Shown: positions 50 to 8,433 of the stretch, piece after piece
How positions within the stretch are numbered: position 1 is the stretch's first letter
How the letters are laid out: the number at the start of each line of letters is the position of its first letter
Origin: a virus
Reading direction: 5' to 3' (one strand)
UHGV virus genome: UHGV-1948712
DNA length: 8,433 nucleotides
Notes under the pieces: model-generated
Told to the model about the DNA's origin: nothing
What the model saw: the letters and a program-made list of their open reading frames with translations, nothing else
Database searches by the model: none
Program-made: the position numbers and the translations under genes

Positions 50-283
50 TCATTGGTCACAGACCGTAATCCACTGGCCCAGGACGTCTTTCAGGCAATG
101 TTGGCATAAATCCAGTTTTAAGCGATTACTGTCACCAAAAATTGAACCGTATCCAGCTAAGTGATTAACAGACAGAAACTCATTGAACTCAATGTCATCT
201 ACCACCGTCTTCGCATGGCGACCACAGCGATCGCAGGTCTTCGCACATAACATTACAGTATCGCTGGATGTGAAAAATTGCAT
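50..283 (-). CDS. small zinc-ribbon protein (CxxC ... CxxC), 77 aa, function unknown
   Basis: ATG at 283..281 preceded by a strong SD (GAGGAG, 5-nt spacer, minus strand 294..289). Protein has CDRC and CQHC motifs about 39 residues apart, a zinc-ribbon architecture like the N-domain of MqsA/YgiT-type proteins. No Ff phage counterpart that I recognise. Confidence 0.6.
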   Translation of the reverse strand: MQFFTSSDTVMLCAKTCDRCGRHAKTVVDDIEFNEFLSVNHLAGYGSIFGDSNRLKLDLCQHCLKDVLGQWITVCDQ

Positions 284-400: not shown

Positions 401-709
401 TCATATAAACCAATAGACCGTCCTTACGCCATTCTGGTTATCAATAACATAGCCGCATTGTTTCCTTAAAAATTCTTCTGCTAAATCAATGGCTTTTACA
501 GAAATCTCATAAGAAGGAAGTAAAGTGTATCCTTTCCCTTCACTGGCAGCTGCTTTGATCGCATCCAGAGTATTATCAATCAGTAACAGAGCAAGTGATG
601 CTTCATTTACCTGAGCCGAAGAACTTCTGGCTGCAAGTGTCATTGTTTTTGCTTCTTCCGCTGTAATCGTTCGTTCTGCCAGAGCAGATAAAATCCCATA
701 AGAATCCAT
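401..709 (-). CDS. hypothetical protein, 102 aa
   Basis: ATG at 709..707 with a weak GGGG SD-like motif upstream. Lies between gene IV and the zinc-ribbon gene on the same strand as the phage genes. Not recognisable as an Ff protein. Confidence 0.5.
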   Translation of the reverse strand: MDSYGILSALAERTITAEEAKTMTLAARSSSAQVNEASLALLLIDNTLDAIKAAASEGKGYTLLPSYEISVKAIDLAEEFLRKQCGYVIDNQNGVRTVYWFI

Positions 710-735
710 TAGTTACCCCAATCAATAATGTCCAT

Positions 736-782
736 TTGATGGATAGCGAGCAGGGCTCACGCACCTACCCGCTATCCATCAA
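736..782. repeat. 13-bp perfect inverted repeat with 21-nt loop immediately after gene IV
   Basis: TTGATGGATAGCG (736..748) and CGCTATCCATCAA (770..782) are exact reverse complements. The upstream arm overlaps the gene IV stop codon. No U-tract follows on the minus-strand transcript, so it is not a canonical intrinsic terminator. Position matches where Ff phages carry the packaging-signal hairpin. Confidence 0.5.
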
Positions 783-2044
783 AGTGGACGAATGATATGT
801 GCTGTAAGCAAAATATACATAATACGCTGTTCATTGCTGTCTGCCTTGCTACTGAAAATCCAGCCTATAAGAGGAATTTTACTTATAACTGGAACTGAAC
901 GCTCGGCATTGCTGAACGATGAATCGATAAGCCCCCCCAATAACAACGTCTGACCATCCTTAATCTGGACTGTCGTCTGAATCTGGCGCTGATTAGTAAT
1001 AATATCGGATGCCTGATCATCATTGCTGATTGAATCAGCGCGAGTGTCGATAGTCAGAACTAGTTGCCCGTTACCCATGACAACAGGCGTTACCTTGAGA
1101 GAAACGCCAACATCATGACGCTCGATAGTCTGAAACGGATTATTTACCCCGGCAGATTCGCCCGTTACCTTTCCGGTGATAAACGGCACATTCTTACCTA
1201 CGGAAATGTAACCAGTCTGACCAGACTGAGTAAGAATACGCGGCGTTGAAATCACCTTAGAGCGTGAATTACTCTGGACAGCACGCAGAGACAGCGCCAA
1301 CACGTTACCATCAAAAATACCAAAAGAACCGCCCGCCGTAGAAAGAGCGCTACCCAGTGCAGAAGTATTAAAGCCCCCCGCAACCTTATGACCGGATGCA
1401 GAACCTGCCGCAAACGATAAATCAACGCCATCAGACAAGCTGGTTTCAAACATCAGCGACTGAATGAGAACCTGATCGCGGGCAACATCCACAGAATTGA
1501 TAAAATCGGACAGAACCGGCAGCAGCTCGTCAGGCGCAGAAACAATCAGCGAGTTATTGCCTGGATAATCCACGACATTACCACCACCATTAGAATCAAG
1601 ATAAATTTTAATCAGTTGCTGAACATCGGACGATCTAACTTTTGTCAGCTTAAAATTTCTGACCGTAAGCGCCACAGGTACTGGCTGGTAAGATGGCTCA
1701 GAAGGAAAAGTATCATAAGACTGGTTATCAGAATCATCGGAATCCGAAACCATCTGTGAAGGTAATTTAGACGGCAAAGAGACTACCGCAGGATTGCCAG
1801 AAAGCATGACAAAACCGTTAGCATTCAGAACAGACTTAAAGAAATCATCAATATTTGTTGGATTAACATCAGCATTAAATACGGTTACGTTTCCTTTAAT
1901 ATCAGGATTAACAATAACAGGCTTGCCAGTTTTTGAAGAATACCGCTGAACAAATGAGCGAACAGATGAATTATTTAAATTAACAGTTTCAGCAGAAACG
2001 CAGAATGAACAGGCAAATAAAAAAGCAACAATAACAGAGCGCAT
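779..2044 (-). CDS. IV: gene IV protein, outer-membrane secretin for virion export
   Basis: 421 aa with clear collinear similarity to M13 pIV as I recall it (e.g. SVPRILT, GESA, VNNPFQTIER, GQTLLLGG, SKIPLIG). Start set at Met 2044 (N-terminal MRSVIVAFLFACSFCVSA looks like a signal peptide) with AGGAG SD at 2059..2055. The longer 779..2137 ORF is an in-frame extension overlapping gene I. Confidence 0.9.
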   Translation of the reverse strand: MRSVIVAFLFACSFCVSAETVNLNNSSVRSFVQRYSSKTGKPVIVNPDIKGNVTVFNADVNPTNIDDFFKSVLNANGFVMLSGNPAVVSLPSKLPSQMVSDSDDSDNQSYDTFPSEPSYQPVPVALTVRNFKLTKVRSSDVQQLIKIYLDSNGGGNVVDYPGNNSLIVSAPDELLPVLSDFINSVDVARDQVLIQSLMFETSLSDGVDLSFAAGSASGHKVAGGFNTSALGSALSTAGGSFGIFDGNVLALSLRAVQSNSRSKVISTPRILTQSGQTGYISVGKNVPFITGKVTGESAGVNNPFQTIERHDVGVSLKVTPVVMGNGQLVLTIDTRADSISNDDQASDIITNQRQIQTTVQIKDGQTLLLGGLIDSSFSNAERSVPVISKIPLIGWIFSSKADSNEQRIMYILLTAHIIRPL

Positions 2045-2051
2045 AATAATA

Positions 2052-2426
2052 TTACTCCTGACAGGTAACAGTCTGTAAATAACGGCCTTTTCTAATAACA
2101 ACACGACAGGCATCTTTAATATCAACGGAATAACCATCTTTAATCAAATCAAAATACTGATATTTCATACCTTTTGCATCAACAAACGTAACGGAAACGT
2201 CAAAGCCAAGTTGTGAAAAAGAATTAATAGAAAGTCGGGGTAAGTCACTGGACGAATCAGGCGTTACCGCCCTCGCCTGTTCAGCATAAGCAGATTTAAT
2301 AGCTGAGATTTCATCAACATTCTTTCCAGACTGGAGCCAGAAACCAAACGCAAGCCCCAGCGCCAAAAAAGAAAGCATTAATATAAGACGGTTCGATTTG
2401 CGAAAATAAATTTTAGTGAGGCGCAT
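2052..2426 (-). CDS. XI: gene XI protein, in-frame internal start within gene I
   Basis: Internal Met at residue 241 of pI (MRLTKIYF...), the same position and context as M13 pXI (MKLTKIYL...), followed by a hydrophobic TM segment. 124 aa. Confidence 0.6.
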   Translation of the reverse strand: MRLTKIYFRKSNRLILMLSFLALGLAFGFWLQSGKNVDEISAIKSAYAEQARAVTPDSSSDLPRLSINSFSQLGFDVSVTFVDAKGMKYQYFDLIKDGYSVDIKDACRVVIRKGRYLQTVTCQE

Positions 2427-3146
2427 ATAATAATTAAATCCTCTGTGAACAGAAAATTGACCGTGCGTGATAAATGGTGGCAAAAGCGAAAATGCGCCAT
2501 GAGGATAATTATCTGTGAACGCTTGTTTGGTATTGTAAGCAGAATAAAGAGATTTTCCTGTATATATCCATTTATCAACAGTGATTGAATTAACATTATC
2601 ACCATATTTGACAATGCCAAAGTGTACCTTTGGTAAAGAAAATCTCGCCCCTGAAACCAAATTCATAATGGAGCCAACAAAAGGAATGTTTAATTTATCT
2701 GAACGGCGACAATAAACAACATGCTCAGCAAGCGCCAGACGAGCTTGCTTATCCATTATCGAAATATCCTGAATCAAAAATATAATATCCCAGCCTAATT
2801 TTCTGGCATGTAAAAACCAGTCAATAACAGGTTGTCTGTCTTTATCACCCCATGAGCGGGAATTAAACCAAGTACCACATTCATCAAGTACAAGGAGGCC
2901 ATTACGGGATTCATCGTAAGATGTATTCCCAATACCAATAGCAAGTAAATCATTTAATGAAGGCTTGTCAGGAATGCGAATAACGCGCGTTTTTTTCGCA
3001 TAACGCCCAACCATAGGCATATTATGCAATTTAAGATCAAGATTAGTGGCAACAGGACAACCCTTAGCAAGTCTTTCCTGTATTCTGGAAACACTAACAA
3101 GTGTCTTGCCTGAGCCTAATTTGCCTGTTACTACATAAACCGCCAT
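2052..3146 (-). CDS. I: gene I protein, Zot-like inner-membrane assembly ATPase
   Basis: 364 aa. N-terminus MAVYVVTGKLGSGKTLVS carries a Walker A motif and is near-identical to M13 pI as recalled; DWFLHARKLGWDIIFL and LALAEHVVYCRR are also conserved. The ATG directly follows the gene VI stop (TAAATG). Confidence 0.92.
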   Translation of the reverse strand: MAVYVVTGKLGSGKTLVSVSRIQERLAKGCPVATNLDLKLHNMPMVGRYAKKTRVIRIPDKPSLNDLLAIGIGNTSYDESRNGLLVLDECGTWFNSRSWGDKDRQPVIDWFLHARKLGWDIIFLIQDISIMDKQARLALAEHVVYCRRSDKLNIPFVGSIMNLVSGARFSLPKVHFGIVKYGDNVNSITVDKWIYTGKSLYSAYNTKQAFTDNYPHGAFSLLPPFITHGQFSVHRGFNYYMRLTKIYFRKSNRLILMLSFLALGLAFGFWLQSGKNVDEISAIKSAYAEQARAVTPDSSSDLPRLSINSFSQLGFDVSVTFVDAKGMKYQYFDLIKDGYSVDIKDACRVVIRKGRYLQTVTCQE

Positions 3147-3488
3147 TTAAATCACCCTGTTTGCATAATCAAGAAATTTTTGTTTTAAATCGAAAACAAA
3201 AACACTGATACGAGTAACCATAATAACGTTAACACACGCCTGAAAATGGTCAGGCAATACAGACGCCATTAAATGGGAGAAATCAGCAGGTAAACCGTTA
3301 TACATGACCTCAGCAAGGTACTGCATTAAAAGCGTAACAGTTGTTGTAATTAATGCGACCAATGCAAAGGCGATTAATCCTGTTCTGGTAGCAAGTCGAG
3401 CTAAAAAAACCGCCACATAGCCAATAAACAAAGGAACAAGACCAATAAGAAAACGCAACAATGCAGGAATACCTAATAATAAAGGCAT
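3147..3488 (-). CDS. VI: gene VI protein, minor coat protein
   Basis: 113 aa hydrophobic protein similar to M13 pVI ([13 protein letters not shown].., C-terminal FVFDLKQK). ATG at 3488..3486 overlaps the gene III TGA stop (TGATG coupling). The ORF track start at 3491 is a GTG one codon upstream. Confidence 0.85.
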   Translation of the reverse strand: MPLLLGIPALLRFLIGLVPLFIGYVAVFLARLATRTGLIAFALVALITTTVTLLMQYLAEVMYNGLPADFSHLMASVLPDHFQACVNVIMVTRISVFVFDLKQKFLDYANRVI

Positions 3489-4747
3489 CACTCACCCCCT
3501 TTGCGAAGCAATGAAGTTAAAGAAGTAAAGACATACCAGAACGTAAGGCAATAAAAAACCCATGAAAGAACATCTTTAATAGTCAGTAATTTATCGCAAC
3601 CAATATCAATCTGATAAACCTCTCCGGGAAAAATAATAAAATCAGAGCAGCCGTTACCATTGGGTAAATTAGGCAGCATAGCACCTTTATTTAAAAATGC
3701 TTCCCATAAAGCACCGTGAGAATCCTTTTCAATTCCCAATTCAGAATCAGCTAAAGTAGAAGCGCCATCTAATTCAGAGTCGCCCTTTCCATAACGAGAA
3801 TCACCACCTGAAGGGTCAGCAAAACGGCCAGCCCCCCGCGTAAGATTGTTAATGGAATCGTCAAGACGATTTATATTATTCCTGGTTTGTTCATCGGCAT
3901 TTTTTTTATCATCTGATGAAGTGTCTTTCTCCGTTAATTTATCATGAATATCGCTGGCTATTTTGGGTGAAGCACCTTCGATCGCAGACTGAATATCACC
4001 TTTAGAAAGACTGGAACCACTAGAGCCACCGCCAGAACTACCGCCAGAACTACCGCCAGAACTACCGCCACCGGACTCACCACCGCCAGACTCACCACCA
4101 CCGGACTCACCACCACCGGACTCACCACCACCATTTTGGGGGGTTGAGGGTTTATCAGAGGGGTCAGCTACAGCACCTGTAGGCTTCCATGTTGCAGCGC
4201 AAACAGTACCATCACCCTGACAAACAATGACACCAGTAGCCTCATATTCACAGCCGTTATAGTAGATATAGCGACCACCATCATATGAATCAACATTATT
4301 AAATACACCTTCTTCTGGCGGCTTCGCTTCACAAATTTCTTCTGGTGTCGGGTCAGTAGGTTTTTCATCAGGAACAGAACGCTGAATATTACCAACAATA
4401 TAAGCCGTTAAAGACCAATATTTATCCTTCTGCCCTGGTGAATCGCTGTAAGTACAATCGCCAGTAAAAACAAGACGGAATTCAGAATCAGGCCAGATAC
4501 CCTCATAAGTTGGTTTAATCCGAGTAAATACACTCTGAGCACTGGATTTAGCACCCTGACAAGCGGAGGCCTGCATAGCAGCATCAATATAGTAAACCGT
4601 TATCTTAGAGCCATCCTGATTGGTTATTTGCTTACTTTCAGCATAGGCAGAACTTTGATAAGTGGATTTAGTAATGCTTTCCCATGACTCAGCATGTGAA
4701 AAAGGAGAAATGAGGACAGCGGAAAGAATTAATATTTTCCTTCTCAT
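3488..4747 (-). CDS. III: gene III protein, adsorption/minor coat protein
   Basis: 419 aa from Met 4747 (signal peptide [19 protein letters not shown]), Cys-rich N-terminal domains, long Gly-rich linker, C-terminal hydrophobic anchor. The longer ORF to 4891 would overlap gene VIII and its terminator. Confidence 0.85.
4010..4132. repeat. tandem 15-nt and 12-nt coding repeats (GGGES x4, GGSS x3) in the gene III linker
   Basis: Near-perfect repeats of CCACCGGACTCACCA-type and CCGCCAGAACTA-type units, translating on the minus strand to [41 protein letters not shown]. Confidence 0.85.
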
Positions 4748-4755
4748 AGTAACCC

Positions 4756-4784
4756 GCTTTAATAAAGGGGCAACGAGTGCCCCT
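4756..4784 (-). terminator. rho-independent terminator between gene VIII and gene III
   Basis: 7-bp GC-rich stem AGGGGCA (4766..4772) / TGCCCCT (4778..4784) with 5-nt loop, followed on the minus-strand transcript by UUAUUAAA. Same location as the strong terminator after gene VIII in Ff phages. Confidence 0.65.
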
Positions 4785-4793
4785 GAGTGAAAT

Positions 4794-5036
4794 TCAAACC
4801 GCTTTTGAAGAGAATTTTTTGAAAATACGAATGGCAAGCCCAGCGCCAACCACAGCAACAACAACAGGCCATACTTTACCAATGAGATCATTTGCCTGAG
4901 TCAACAAAGCATCCATTGCCTGACCTGCATAATCAGTACCACCTGTAGCGCCTTCAGCCGCAAAAGAACTTGCAGAAATAAAAAGCGCAGTTGAAGCCAG
5001 AGCAATTTTATATTTAACAGTAGACAGAATTTTCAT
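4794..5036 (-). CDS. VIII: gene VIII protein, major coat protein precursor
   Basis: 80 aa: signal peptide ending SFA, mature part beginning AEG, a hydrophobic core and basic C-terminus KKFSSKAV (M13: KKFTSKAS). GGAG SD at 5048..5045 with 8-nt spacer. Confidence 0.9.
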
Positions 5037-5055: not shown

Positions 5056-5151
5056 TTACATTAATCGGTCAGAAAATGATTTAAATGAACCGACCGCATA
5101 GAAAAGGGCAAAACCAAAGGTATAAGCCCCGAAGAAATAAACGATATACAT
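5056..5151 (-). CDS. IX: gene IX protein, minor coat protein
   Basis: 31 aa hydrophobic peptide MYIVYFFGAYTFGFALFYAVGSFKSFSDRLM. ATG overlaps the gene VII stop (TAATG). Size and position match M13 pIX (32 aa). Confidence 0.65.
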   Translation of the reverse strand: MYIVYFFGAYTFGFALFYAVGSFKSFSDRLM

Positions 5152-5239: not shown

Positions 5240-5557
5240 TTAACCTTTGATCTCTGCGATGCCACCATCGGAAGCAACATTATAAGTTACACCTTCCCTA
5301 CCCTCCATTGACCACGCACGGACATAGACAGGAATTTGAACTAATTTCCCAATGAAAGCATTCGCCTGGTTCATTAGACCTGCGTTAACGAGAGCCTGAG
5401 AAACTCGAATAATAATTTGATCCTGCTTTGTACCACCAAAACCATCAGGTATTTCAAGGCCAATACCAATTTCATTATAATAGCCCTGACCATTAACTTT
5501 ATTACGTTGGCGGGCTCCCAACATTTTACCCTTAACGAAAAGACCATAATTAGACAT
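5240..5557 (-). CDS. V: gene V-like ssDNA-binding protein
   Basis: 105 aa ORF in the gene V position with AAAGGA SD (7-nt spacer). Only weak similarity to M13 gVp as recalled (segment GQGYYNEIG vs GKPYSLNEQ), so the call rests mainly on synteny. Confidence 0.65.
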   Translation of the reverse strand: MSNYGLFVKGKMLGARQRNKVNGQGYYNEIGIGLEIPDGFGGTKQDQIIIRVSQALVNAGLMNQANAFIGKLVQIPVYVRAWSMEGREGVTYNVASDGGIAEIKG

Positions 5558-5568
5558 ATTACTTTCCT

Positions 5569-5883
5569 TTAATGCCAGCTACTGGCGTGCGAAATACGGT
5601 TGTAATCGAAAATAAAACCTTTCTCATAAATCCATAAGGGGATTTCCGCTGGCTTGGCTTCCAGCGTTCTTATTAGCGGAACAACGTTATTAGAGTCTGG
5701 TGAATCACAATAGAAATTAATATCGATACCGAACGAAAGCAATTCTCTTCTATGGCGATAAAAAGTGTTATGAGGTAACATTTCTTTCATGTTAGCCCCT
5801 TGTTTCCAAAGTAAATAAGTTGACTGTATTTTTCTTGGCAGTTTCGTTATTTTTTCATCACTTAAAATAGCATTCTGATTCAT
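5569..5883 (-). CDS. X: gene X protein, in-frame internal start within gene II
   Basis: Internal Met (MNQNAILSD...) aligned with the M13 pX start (MNIYDDSAVLD...), preceded by a GGGAG SD at 5894..5890. 104 aa C-terminal portion of pII. Confidence 0.6.
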   Translation of the reverse strand: MNQNAILSDEKITKLPRKIQSTYLLWKQGANMKEMLPHNTFYRHRRELLSFGIDINFYCDSPDSNNVVPLIRTLEAKPAEIPLWIYEKGFIFDYNRISHASSWH

Positions 5884-6663
5884 TTCTATTCTCCCTACAT
5901 ATTCAGAGAATAATTGACGTGGTGTTTTCATATTCCAGTTAGCGCCAAGCGTTAAATTTAAATCAATAAGCTCAGTTGTTCTTAATGTTAATTCAATACG
6001 TAATTTATCTTTCGTCCAGTCCAGTAACCCGGCTCGTACAAACTCTTCGGCTATCTGGTGCCCTTTTTTACCAGAAACGTGTTCATCATATTTTGAATAA
6101 AATTTCAGACTCCATCGACGGGAGTTTTTACCTAAATAAACTGTACCGCCTTTCCCACATGCGCGACCATGGCGTGTTTTAGCTTTAAATTCGGCGGCAT
6201 AAAGCCATGATCTGACATTTTCCAGCGTAGATAATGAATACATGTAATTAATGTCAATACGTGAAATTTTATACTGACCTGCCATAACGGCTTTATAAGA
6301 CGCTAAATCATGAGGAATATTCAATAAGGATAAAATCCTGGCATAGACCGTCAACATGAGCCCTTGTATATCATCCGACCCAACAACAGAATGCCCCTGC
6401 AGAAACTTGGAAGGATTACCATCAATGTACAAATGTGTCGCTTTACCTTCGCCATTAGATCCTATCGATCGTACTTTCATCGTTGCTTCATGCGAACCGC
6501 GAACAGTCAGTCGCTTAACGGTTTCCCACTCAATTGCACCGTCAGCATCAACGCTGACAACACTCCCCGCCGGAAGCGGTTTGTGTGTGCAAGGGAAAAT
6601 CCCGGTAAGCCAATCGATCACGAATAAATCCTCAAAATTACAAAAATGATGACTTACTAACAC
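5569..6663 (-). CDS. II: gene II protein, rolling-circle replication initiator/nickase
   Basis: 364 aa with similarity to M13 pII (KFLQGHSVVG vs KVLQGHNVFG; NNVVPLIR vs NNVVPLVR). The start is a GTG at 6663..6661 with a stop 3 codons upstream and no obvious SD, so the exact start is uncertain. Confidence 0.85.
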   Translation of the reverse strand: MLVSHHFCNFEDLFVIDWLTGIFPCTHKPLPAGSVVSVDADGAIEWETVKRLTVRGSHEATMKVRSIGSNGEGKATHLYIDGNPSKFLQGHSVVGSDDIQGLMLTVYARILSLLNIPHDLASYKAVMAGQYKISRIDINYMYSLSTLENVRSWLYAAEFKAKTRHGRACGKGGTVYLGKNSRRWSLKFYSKYDEHVSGKKGHQIAEEFVRAGLLDWTKDKLRIELTLRTTELIDLNLTLGANWNMKTPRQLFSEYVGRIEMNQNAILSDEKITKLPRKIQSTYLLWKQGANMKEMLPHNTFYRHRRELLSFGIDINFYCDSPDSNNVVPLIRTLEAKPAEIPLWIYEKGFIFDYNRISHASSWH

Positions 6664-6790: not shown

Positions 6791-6973
6791 ATGGCAAAGC
6801 GCACGACTTATAACGTGACGGAAGAAAGAAAAATGAAACTAGAACGACTGGCTATAAATGCCAGTGTAAAACTAGGAAAAACAATTACATGGACAGAGAT
6901 TTTAGGTTATCTGATTGATAACTACTCTAAAGATGCAGCAGAAGATCTCATGTCTGCCAAACAAAAGGATTAA
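6791..6973 (+). CDS. ribbon-helix-helix-like small DNA-binding regulator, 60 aa
   Basis: MAKRTTYNVTEERKMKLERLAINASVKLGKTITWTEILGYLIDNY fits the RHH pattern (basic beta-strand, helix A, G-containing turn, helix B) of CopG/Arc/MetJ-type proteins. Transcribed divergently from gene II. No SD before the ATG, so it may be leaderless or start elsewhere. Confidence 0.5.
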   Translation: MAKRTTYNVTEERKMKLERLAINASVKLGKTITWTEILGYLIDNYSKDAAEDLMSAKQKD

Positions 6974-7026
6974 GTACCACGAATGGTACAAACGTGCAGT
7001 ATTACCTACACTGCACGTTCTTTATT
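6974..7026 (+). terminator. tandem hairpins, the second terminator-like
   Basis: Hairpin 1: GTACCA (6974..6979) / TGGTAC (6984..6989), 4-nt loop. Hairpin 2: AACGTGCAGT (6991..7000) / ACTGCACGTT (7010..7019), 9-nt loop, followed by CTTTATT. Sits just after the RHH gene stop. Confidence 0.5.
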
Positions 7027-7061
7027 GTGCGGATTTTGAACAGCAACAAAGGATCAAAAGG

Positions 7062-7484
7062 ATGAGTAGAAATAACGAAACAAGCGGCGTTGAACTGGTT
7101 GTTGTAGGCGTATTTGCTTTCTGTCTGGCAGTTGTTGCCTGGCTAATGAAAACTTTCGATGTTGAATGGCAAACAGCACTGGAAACTGCGCCTGGCCTGA
7201 TAGTCTGGCTGCTTGTTGTCGGTGCGGGGATCTTTTTCGGGATCAAAATGGAAACTGGCCTTATTCGCTGGGGTGCTCCACTGGCGATCGCCCTTCTGAT
7301 TCCGGTATTCAAGCCAATTCTTAAGGAAGCTGCCGGAGTTCGTGAAACGGGTGGGCTGGTTTTCGATGATATGGTTTCGTGGTATGGAACTGGCTGGGGA
7401 ATGTCTCTGATGTTCTTCGGGATTCTTATTGTCGGATACGGTCTGCTTTATTGGTGGCACAGAAGGAATTCATATTATTGGTGA
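7062..7484 (+). CDS. small integral membrane protein (3-4 predicted TM helices), 140 aa
   Basis: ATG at 7062 with AAGGA SD at 7049..7053 (8-nt spacer). Hydrophobic stretches LVVVGVFAFCLAVVAWL, GLIVWLLVVGAGIFFGI, APLAIALLIPVF and SLMFFGILIVGYGLLYWW. The ORF track extension back to 6915 would cross the hairpins and overlap the RHH gene, so the internal start is preferred. Confidence 0.5.
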   Translation: MSRNNETSGVELVVVGVFAFCLAVVAWLMKTFDVEWQTALETAPGLIVWLLVVGAGIFFGIKMETGLIRWGAPLAIALLIPVFKPILKEAAGVRETGGLVFDDMVSWYGTGWGMSLMFFGILIVGYGLLYWWHRRNSYYW

Positions 7485-7495
7485 ATGTCAATCAC

Positions 7496-7519
7496 TTGAA
7501 TTTACAGGTTTTTTATAAT
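7496..7519 (+). promoter_or_regulatory. candidate promoter: perfect -10 TATAAT with poorly spaced -35
   Basis: TATAAT at 7514..7519. The nearest TTGAAT (7496..7501) gives only a 12-nt spacer, so the -35 is doubtful. About 40 nt upstream of the 7557 gene. Confidence 0.25.
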
Positions 7520-7556
7520 TTCAGCCCGCGCTAGTTTGATATTGTGAAAGGTGAAG

Positions 7557-8132
7557 ATGAGTATGCAACCGAATGAAGAAATGGACCTCAGGAAATTTTA
7601 CGCAGAGGGAACAGCTGACTACTTAAAAACTAAAATCAAAAAAAGCGAACGACTTTTAAAAATAAACCAATATCTATCATTTGCCCTCCCTGTCCTAGTT
7701 GGAGGATACGCATCGGTTGATCACAGCTCCAAATATTTTGATTTTTTAGTTTGGGGCACAGGGATATTATCAGTGATAGTCTTGCTTTCTAATTTATACA
7801 CGCTGGTCATGAAGACTGATGAAAATTTATCTCGATATCTGGAATCATACTCTTTCAATAAACTCCTAACTGATTTGTATGGCGAACTGTCGAGCATGTT
7901 TAAATCAAAGACAGGCAACCAGCAACCCGCTAACCATTTGTTTTCAGTGATAAAATCAAAAGATGACTTCAATGCCAAGGAAGATGAAAAATATGTTAGC
8001 AATAATGATAAGAAACGGATTATGTTCGACATTCTGGTAAAGAAAAATAAAGAATGCGTACGTTGCAATAAAATACCGACTAAATTTAACAAGCGGAAAG
8101 GTTGCACAAATTGTGGCAATCTCGTGAAATAA
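7557..8132 (+). CDS. 2-TM membrane protein with C-terminal zinc ribbon, 191 aa
   Basis: ATG at 7557 after AAAGGTGA (7546..7553); the ORF track start is a GTG at 7551. Two adjacent hydrophobic helices (YLSFALPVLVGGYASV; FLVWGTGILSVIVLLSNLYTLV), a K/E/N-rich soluble region, then CVRCNK...CTNCGN. Very AT-rich coding sequence. Confidence 0.6.
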   Translation: MSMQPNEEMDLRKFYAEGTADYLKTKIKKSERLLKINQYLSFALPVLVGGYASVDHSSKYFDFLVWGTGILSVIVLLSNLYTLVMKTDENLSRYLESYSFNKLLTDLYGELSSMFKSKTGNQQPANHLFSVIKSKDDFNAKEDEKYVSNNDKKRIMFDILVKKNKECVRCNKIPTKFNKRKGCTNCGNLVK

Positions 8133-8143
8133 AGGAGAAACAA

Positions 8144-8335
8144 ATGAGTTATAAAGTAGATCAAGTCAAAGCTCTCTGGCTTCAATTGACTGATGCGGAG
8201 AAAAAAGAATTTACAACATATCTTTTTAATGGTGAAAAAAAATCCTTACGTGAAGGATTCGAAAGTTTTAGTGTGAATAAAAGCACTACAATGCAATTTG
8301 GTGATGCAAACGTCTGCCCTGCTTGCGGAAAATAA
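8144..8335 (+). CDS. small protein with C-terminal CPAC motif, 63 aa
   Basis: ATG at 8144 preceded by a strong SD AAAGGAG (8131..8137, 6-nt spacer), 11 nt after the stop of the upstream gene, suggesting translational coupling. Ends ...GDANVCPACGK. The ORF track start at 8102 overlaps the upstream gene and lacks an SD. Confidence 0.55.
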   Translation: MSYKVDQVKALWLQLTDAEKKEFTTYLFNGEKKSLREGFESFSVNKSTTMQFGDANVCPACGK

Positions 8336-8376
8336 AATCTAAAAGATTTTGGTTCGCACAATGACGTTATGCTAAA

Positions 8377-8413
8377 GAGGCCGCTGCGGGATTCGATTTT
8401 CGCAGCGGCCTTT
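8377..8413 (+). terminator. rho-independent terminator closing the plus-strand cassette
   Basis: 11-bp GC-rich stem AGGCCGCTGCG (8377..8387) / CGCAGCGGCCT (8400..8410), 12-nt loop, followed by TTTT. Confidence 0.75.
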
Positions 8414-8433
8414 TCAACATAACGAGTCCTACA

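Follow-up and report, generated by a model that had tools for sequence, protein, structure and literature searches.

The window, that is, the whole stretch of 8,433 nucleotides analysed here (UHGV virus genome UHGV-1948712), carries the core genes of a filamentous phage, all of them on the minus strand (Table 1). Gene IV, whose longest open reading frame extends to position 2137 and whose RefSeq start is equivalent to position 2044, ends in an inverted repeat and is followed in the same direction by two ORFs. A protein search placed its product, pIV, at 73% identity to that of I2-2, 68.5% to that of IKe and 50% to that of Ff, and gene II of the window shows 56% identity to its I2-2 counterpart. 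At the C-terminus of pVII, the final 13 residues (SFGLGAITAGVFR) are the same as in IKe pVII. In addition, a comparison by eye indicated that the 31-aa gene IX-like ORF resembles pIX of IKe and I2-2.

Table 1. Positions of the genes and of the hairpin elements in the window (minus-strand features are numbered in the direction in which they are read; the reverse module is on the plus strand)
Feature	Position	Strand	Basis or remark
Gene II	6663..5569	-	Pfam Phage_CRI/G2P
Gene V	5557..5240	-	Pfam G5P
Gene VII, 28 aa	5237..5151	-	RefSeq name 'tail virion protein G7P-2'; presumed signal reader
Gene IX-like ORF, 31 aa, MYIVYFFGAYTFGFALFYAVGSFKSFSDRLM	5151..5056	-	Presumed signal reader
Gene VIII	5036..4794	-	
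Gene III	4891..3488	-	Pfam G3P
Gene VI	3491..3147	-	Pfam DUF5455
Gene I, Zot-family assembly ATPase, inner-membrane assembly partner	3146..2052	-	Pfam Zot, E 6e-41
Gene IV, secretin pIV	2044..779	-	Pfam Secretin, Secretin_N and GspD N0; RefSeq annotation of identical prophages
Complete viral-sense hairpin, proposed packaging (morphogenetic) signal	789..730	-	27 bp; bulges C784 and T763; loop GTGA (760..757)
CGGGT-A-GGTG, ascending (5′) limb	771..762	-	Read from the sequence
Conserved apex GGTAGG-T-GC-GTGA-GC	769..755	-	Homologue alignments
ORF of 102 aa, no known function	709..401	-	Begins 20 nt beyond the hairpin foot, with GGGG 6 nt ahead of its ATG; no part of the signal
ORF of 77 aa, no known function	283..50	-	3′ of the 102-aa ORF, same strand
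Reverse module, four genes	6791-8335	+	Opposite in direction to the core genes

Prophages 99% identical to the window are present in complete chromosomes of E. coli. In strain C10 the phage is tandemly duplicated with a period that equals the window length plus a 57-nt insertion, and in strain UM146 a perfect dif site overlaps positions 1-11 of the window (TTATGCGCACC), which constitute the XerC arm. Judging from this tandem period and this overlap, the window is exactly one prophage unit of a dif-integrated E. coli filamentous phage. When its ends are joined, the circular junction (8400-8433 followed by 1-11), read in the dif orientation, forms an attachment site, GGTGCGCATAA-TGTAGGACTCG-TTATGTTGAAA, with a perfect XerC arm, a spacer of 11 nt instead of 6, and a XerD-like arm that matches at 9 of 11 positions. 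The phages of the published UPΦ group integrate at dif and are related to IKe and I2-2, with proteins about 70% identical; they have the dif site at the genome end, reverse-strand ORFs adjoining dif, and two genes of no known function at the place that is intergenic in IKe, I2-2 and M13 (PMC7307601). As far as can be compared by description, the organisation of the window fits this group (PMC7307601). An initial identification of the prophage as CUS-1/YpfΦ was dropped in favour of the UPΦ description, as the published description sets YpfΦ apart, with less than 20% identity outside genes II and V (PMC7307601); the equation of the 102-aa and 77-aa ORFs with YPO2280a/2281 was dropped along with that label. 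We also observed that the length of gene III (3488-4891) varies among otherwise 99%-identical prophages, namely between the window, L001 and L002, and that 16 places in E. coli strain EC5502 match the phage.

The sequence-only reading of this DNA had reported a perfect 13-bp inverted repeat at positions 736-782, with a 21-nt loop, overlapping the gene IV stop. A perfect repeat is indeed present there, but its arms are in fact 14 bp long (735-748 and 770-783), one pair at the foot having been missed, and no other perfect inverted repeat in the window is as long. Likewise, 21 nt do separate these arms, but on the minus strand this interior is itself paired: beyond six further pairs, of which two are G·T, T763 is bulged and two G-C pairs follow, leaving a hairpin with a loop of only 4 nt. 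At 90% complementarity the inverted repeat extends to 20-nt arms (735-754 and 764-783). In 40 dinucleotide-preserving shuffles of the window, examined with loops of 3-30 nt, the longest perfect repeat measured 7-12 bp and typically 8-9 bp. Since the shuffles never exceeded 12 bp, the 14-bp inverted repeat is not a chance feature.

The foot of the complete hairpin is formed by pairing of GTCCA (789..785) with TGGAC (734..730), above which C784 is bulged. The middle of the stem consists of 20 pairs between 783..764 and 754..735, including the wobbles T767·G751 and G769·T749. At the top, beyond the bulged T763, GC (762..761) pairs with GC (756..755) and encloses the loop. Folding of the viral strand, which the sequence-only reading had suggested, gave this 27-bp structure a stability of -24.5 kcal/mol as DNA (z = -7.9) and -46.9 kcal/mol as RNA (z = -9.6), and in neither case was any shuffle as stable. 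When both strands were scanned, the hairpin proved to be the most stable 70-nt fold in the window. The plus-strand fold of the same segment was weaker by 3.4 kcal/mol, the two wobbles turning into A·C mismatches on that strand. The hairpin begins 10 nt before the end of gene IV and thus holds the stop codon TGA (781..779, minus strand) inside its 5′ arm, which bears out the overlap noted earlier. The absence of a U-tract was likewise borne out: no T-run follows the stem, its tail being ATTATTGATTGGGG, and a terminator scan of positions 1-1200 returned no site on either strand, in agreement with the previous view that a simple terminator is unlikely here. A promoter scan of the same 1,200 positions was negative throughout, and there is no promoter-like site near the 102-aa ORF. 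Rfam returned nothing at 730-789; the sole match in the window at E<=1 was a sub-threshold one at 8361-8412.

The identity of the hairpin became apparent via the pIV protein search and the annotated records of the phages that it pointed to, while a megablast search of a phage collection yielded short gene IV matches only. The GenBank record of I2-2 (X14336) lists a 'morphogenetic signal' at 2260-2330, with gene IV ending at 2273, and that of IKe (X02139) a 'pot. transcription termination, morphogenetic signal' at 6141-6196, with gene IV ending at 6151. When the intergenic regions of IKe and I2-2 were compared with the window by BLAST, the hairpin site was matched, and alignment demonstrated that the window hairpin is a sequence homologue of both annotated signals. 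The core GGGTAGGTGCG-NN-AGCCCTGC is common to the window, IKe, I2-2 and PEar1, whereas the flanking stems differ in sequence. A covariance model built independently, from I2-2, IKe and PEar1 only (R2), matched the window significantly at one place only, 723-795(-), with 38 bits and E 1.2e-8, all other matches having E values of about 1 or worse. The family covariance model (R1) matched the window at 724-795(-) with 76.3 bits.

The correspondence with IKe and I2-2 extends to the setting of the element. Their signals begin 10-13 nt before the end of gene IV, have the stop codon in the 5′ arm and lie on the same strand; they share with the window the GGGTAGGTGCG-NN-AGCCCTGC apex, the bulged T, the G…A loop and a long, nearly perfect stem, as well as homologous pVII, pIX, pI and pIV (pIV 68-73% identical, and the pVII C-terminus identical to that of IKe). 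On the ascending limb, IKe has CGGGT…GGTG exactly as in the window, whereas I2-2 has GGGGT-A-GGTG. By contrast, the lower stem of the window hairpin differs in sequence, its pairing being kept by compensatory changes, and the hairpin as a whole, with 27 bp and two bulges, is longer and more regular. The surroundings differ as well. In IKe and I2-2 the signal opens a single non-coding intergenic region that also contains both origins, while in the window it is followed after 20 nt by the 102-aa gene and then by the 77-aa gene, the dif-like attachment site and the reverse-strand module. Moreover, the window phage integrates at dif, whereas IKe and I2-2 are non-integrating (PMC7307601).

Seventeen distinct homologues of the hairpin were collected by an apex scan of viral contigs and by pIV searches of genomes and viral contigs, and every one of them lies at the end of a pIV gene. 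Several further sequences (L088, L091/96/101/104, L106 and L107/108) were excluded as chance matches of the apex pattern in coding DNA that form no hairpin. An alignment that included reverse-strand and partial matches (A3) was replaced by one of the 17 sequences (A4). In A4, which was fitted to the model structure and therefore favours pairing, 95.7% of the cells were paired as compared with 75.7% in column shuffles, none of 500 of which reached the observed value; when the partners were slid by 1-3 columns, 35-49% of the cells were paired. Compensatory changes on both sides were found at 11 of the 18 pairs (56 cells) in the 17 homologues, as exemplified by GGATAGC/GCTATCC, which is replaced by GGCTGGC/GCCAGCC in L090. 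An independent MAFFT alignment of 11 sequences (A2) returned the same helix, with covariation at 8 of the 18 pairs.

The departures from Watson-Crick pairing were strongly one-sided. Out of 54 such cells, 41 were G·T and 13 purine-purine, and not one was A·C. Furthermore, the viral-sense fold was the more stable one in all 17 homologues, by 4.7 kcal/mol on average. This excess of G·T over A·C, together with the uniform strand bias, points to selection on a folded single strand: as read from these alignments, selection is on one folded strand of viral/mRNA polarity and not on the duplex DNA. Certain details of the hairpin are conserved in their own right. The bulged T763 is a T in 16 of the 17 homologues; the T767·G751 wobble is T·G in 13 and C-G in the others; and the loop, which measures 3-5 nt, starts with G and ends with A in all of them. 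The CGGGT-A-GGTG limb recurs in IKe, PEar1 and L093/L100.

These homologues are not alone in having a long hairpin at the gene IV stop or shortly after it. Among pIV relatives with at least 48% identity for which downstream sequence was available, all but one (L125) have such a hairpin, and the sequences at this position fall into an IKe/I2-2/UPΦ family, an If1-type family with the apex CTGCGCAGCGGGG, and Ff. More distant pIV relatives, with 40-44% identity (Halomonas and allies), have no such hairpin at that position. The If1-type sequences (If1 itself, L137, and the others of L133-L140 and L010-L012) have a pIV that is 48-50% identical and a long hairpin directly after gene IV, which is presumably the If1-type packaging signal; in contrast to the window hairpin, which begins ahead of the stop, it has a different apex and begins 9-15 nt past the stop, and the family model does not pick it up. 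Hairpin A of Ff (f1/M13/fd) resembles the window element in its location at the gene IV stop, the stop codon TAG of f1 (L009) lying within the folded structure, and the Ff phages have a matching set of assembly proteins, including a pIV with 50% identity. It is also a long imperfect hairpin of the viral strand with, according to the genetic work on f1 as outlined in a later preprint, CGGGT and then GGTG on its ascending limb. The f1 hairpin is, however, longer and more bulged and has another apex, and the R1 family model gave no match to the f1 copy L009 at E<=1. Kinship with the Ff signal therefore rests on position and a short motif, and the two elements may be either homologous or analogous. 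A DNA hairpin also serves as the packaging signal of the integrative filamentous phages φLf and φLf-UK of Xanthomonas, but that signal comprises 20-26 nt with a GC stem of 7-8 bp and lies for the most part within gene II; it functions whichever way it is oriented, certain loop bases are required and a dedicated protein reads it (bioRxiv 10.1101/2023.12.30.573655). Compared with φLf, the window element is of the long Ff/IKe type.

As regards distribution, 49 out of 5,426 complete E. coli genomes contain the hairpin region at 99% identity or more, and they often have it in tandem. The exception mentioned above, L125 (IMGVR_UViG_2541047720_000001), is a deletion variant in which pIV can be matched up to residue 339, from where the sequence passes into residue 38 of the 102-aa ORF. 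The deletion has thus removed the 3′ part of gene IV, the hairpin in its entirety and the beginning of the 102-aa gene, and has presumably left a defective prophage unable to package itself. Enterobacterial inovirus sequences also turned up in assemblies labelled as unrelated organisms (L009, L003, L012 and L022). A copy of f1/M13, including the standard f1 origin, sits in a contig of a 'SAR11 cluster bacterium'; a 'Candidatus Nanosynbacter' MAG encodes a pIV identical to that of the window together with the same hairpin, orf102 and orf77; and contigs assigned to 'Actinomadura' and 'Paenibacillus' hold related inovirus sequences. These oddly labelled contigs probably reflect contamination or mis-binning.

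The sequence-only reading had put forward a packaging signal at this Ff-like site as one interpretation of the repeat. The homology to the annotated I2-2 and IKe signals, the covariance match and the compensatory changes on one strand all argue for it, and on this comparative evidence we consider it very probable that this phage has the hairpin as its packaging (morphogenetic) signal and that the element is of one family with the IKe and I2-2 signals. The kind of element, an IKe/I2-2-type packaging hairpin, is already well known. For the IKe and f1 signals, functional mapping and genetics defined the sequence and the orientation required for encapsidation, as far as this older work is recounted in a later preprint (Peeters 1985; Russel & Model 1989, via bioRxiv 10.1101/2023.12.30.573655), and the signal features of IKe and I2-2 used here are annotations backed by that genetics. 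The motif ascribed to the f1 signal in the same account, CGGGT closely followed by GGTG (Russel & Model 1989, via bioRxiv 10.1101/2023.12.30.573655), is present in the window hairpin at 771..762(-). In the UPΦ paper (PMC7307601) and a review of YpfΦ no packaging signal or hairpin is mentioned, and the two RefSeq genomes that we inspected have no feature annotated at the hairpin.

How the hairpin would act can be sketched from what is established for Ff and IKe. Rolling-circle replication would release a viral single strand equivalent to the minus strand of the window. This strand is collinear with the IKe and I2-2 records and would be the packaged one. Such records give the viral strand by convention. 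The gene V protein would coat most of the strand, while the segment 789..730 would fold into its 27-bp hairpin, escape coating and stay exposed. At the inner membrane, pVII and pIX would recognise the hairpin through their C-terminal parts, in conjunction with the assembly complex of pI. Recognition would start virion assembly and orient the DNA so that the hairpin comes to lie at the pVII/pIX end, and the particle would be extruded through the pIV secretin; in this way the hairpin is expected to confer packaging. The partner genes for pVII, pIX (the IX-like ORF), pI and pIV are all encoded in the window. This assignment leaves the view of filamentous phage assembly unchanged. It does pin down the probable cis-acting packaging site of widespread filamentous prophages of E. 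coli and the Enterobacterales, some 60 nt that could be included in or deleted from phagemids, transducing particles or tests of defective prophages. Moreover, the conserved bulged T, T·G wobble, G…A loop and CGGGT-A-GGTG limb offer targets for mutagenesis in the better-studied IKe signal.

Several other functions are conceivable for a hairpin at this place. The sequence-only reading had also considered an operator of the downstream 102-aa gene, that is, a duplex bound by a dimeric regulator, for which a perfect 14-bp dyad just upstream of the gene start would be suitable. The hairpin is, however, kept in IKe, I2-2, PEar1 and the relatives L004, L093, L100, L102, L103, L116-L124 and L127, all of which lack a homologue of the 102-aa protein; such homologues were found only in near-identical prophages and in L090/L099. 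In addition, the sequence of the arms varies freely while their pairing is kept, the ratio of 41 G·T to no A·C reflects selection on one folded strand, and there is no promoter-like site present to be controlled. We therefore regard an operator as highly improbable and have abandoned that part of the earlier interpretation. Hardly more credit can be given to the hairpin as the complementary (minus)-strand origin, recognised by RNA polymerase or primase. An element that folds as a single strand, and specifically on the viral strand, would be in keeping with such an origin, and in Ff the minus origin adjoins the packaging signal. Yet in the IKe record the minus-origin hairpins are features of their own (6333-6385 and 6410-6438), apart from the signal at 6141-6196, and the window contains another conserved candidate for the origin region, at 6988-7020, which it has in common with the I2-2 intergenic region. 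The least credible of the alternatives is a folded single-strand substrate of XerC/XerD, like attP of CTXΦ, which we consider virtually negligible. It was suggested by the GGTGCG of the apex, which equals the first six bases of the dif XerC arm in a phage that integrates at dif. This likeness covers 6 nt only, IKe and I2-2, which do not integrate (PMC7307601), have this apex too, and the real crossover is at the window ends, where positions 1-11 are the XerC arm and a dif-like site spans the junction; we judged the resemblance to be due to chance.

As the viral strand and the mRNA are of the same sense, the strand bias by itself does not distinguish a function of the DNA from one of the RNA. 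The hairpin could mainly be an element of the gene IV transcript, acting as a terminator or attenuator, as a 3′ stabiliser or as an RNase III site that splits gene IV from the 102-aa gene, with packaging secondary or absent. The very high stability of the stem as RNA (-46.9 kcal/mol, z = -9.6), the mRNA sense of the selected strand and the label 'pot. transcription termination, morphogenetic signal' of the IKe homologue would all be compatible with this. A duplex of 20 bp or more, perfect to wobble, is moreover of the type cleaved by RNase III. On the other hand, the stem has no U-tract behind it and the scan for terminators returned none; strong termination at this place would silence two downstream genes; and the IKe and I2-2 homologues are annotated as morphogenetic signals. 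The loops of the homologues include GTTA, GCTA and GCCA, which are not GNRA tetraloops, and as a weak further argument, loops that begin with G and end with A are known from very stable DNA mini-hairpins. The encapsidation genetics of f1 and IKe, to the extent that it is related in the preprint, also speaks against a mainly RNA-level element (Peeters 1985; Russel & Model 1989, via bioRxiv 10.1101/2023.12.30.573655), which we accordingly think unlikely.

The packaging signal may nevertheless have something to do as RNA. Its context is the one thing out of the ordinary about it: it sits between two co-directional genes, gene IV and the 102-aa gene, and about 2.1 kb from the candidate origin element, with the accessory genes and the attachment site in between. 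Since the 102-aa ORF starts 20 nt downstream and has no promoter-like site nearby, the hairpin is probably transcribed through, and expression across it would need some handling. An RNA-level role in addition to packaging is thus a possibility, though we incline against it. A specific dual role, in which the single-stranded DNA starts assembly while the RNA gates or processes a read-through transcript for the two accessory genes, appears more doubtful still; if it held, expression of the accessory genes would be coupled to the morphogenesis operon.

No better or larger hairpin resembling a known signal was found elsewhere in the window, where the segments 8356-8425 and 331-400 were considered. 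The former folds about equally on both strands (-21.5 and -21.2 kcal/mol) and was rejected as a packaging signal on account of this lack of strand bias, its terminator-like TTTT and its dissimilarity to known signals. It contains a GC-rich hairpin (8365-8424) with an 11-bp perfect core (GGCCGCTGCG…), followed by TTTT on the plus strand, which looks like the terminator of the reverse-strand module. The segment 331-400 was set aside for its weaker fold and its dissimilarity to known signals. It forms a second strand-biased hairpin on the minus strand, AACCCCGGACAATGACAAAA-CTTGC-TTTTGTTAGTGTCAGGGGTT, right after the stop of the 102-aa ORF (401-403), with -17.1 kcal/mol on the minus and -14.0 kcal/mol on the plus strand, and is weaker than the hairpin at 789..730. 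L090 keeps it, with base changes, behind its 61%-identical 102-aa homologue, and in L125 it comes closer to being perfect. A run of seven T residues lies about 20 nt downstream of it, and the hairpin may be the terminator of the gene IV-orf102 transcript.

The candidate replication-origin element at 6988-7020(-) is a hairpin, AACGTGCAGT-GTAGGTAAT-ACTGCACGTT, located in the gap between the plus-strand ORFs 6791..6973 and 7062..7484. Over 34 nt it is 94% identical (E 6e-9) to the I2-2 intergenic region, about 390 nt upstream of gene II. Similar DNA is found in a few small Enterobacteriaceae plasmids, which are probably replicative forms of inoviruses. Finally, the third most stable local fold of the window (-17.8 kcal/mol) is a branched structure at 6526-6595(-), in coding sequence of the 5′ part of gene II.
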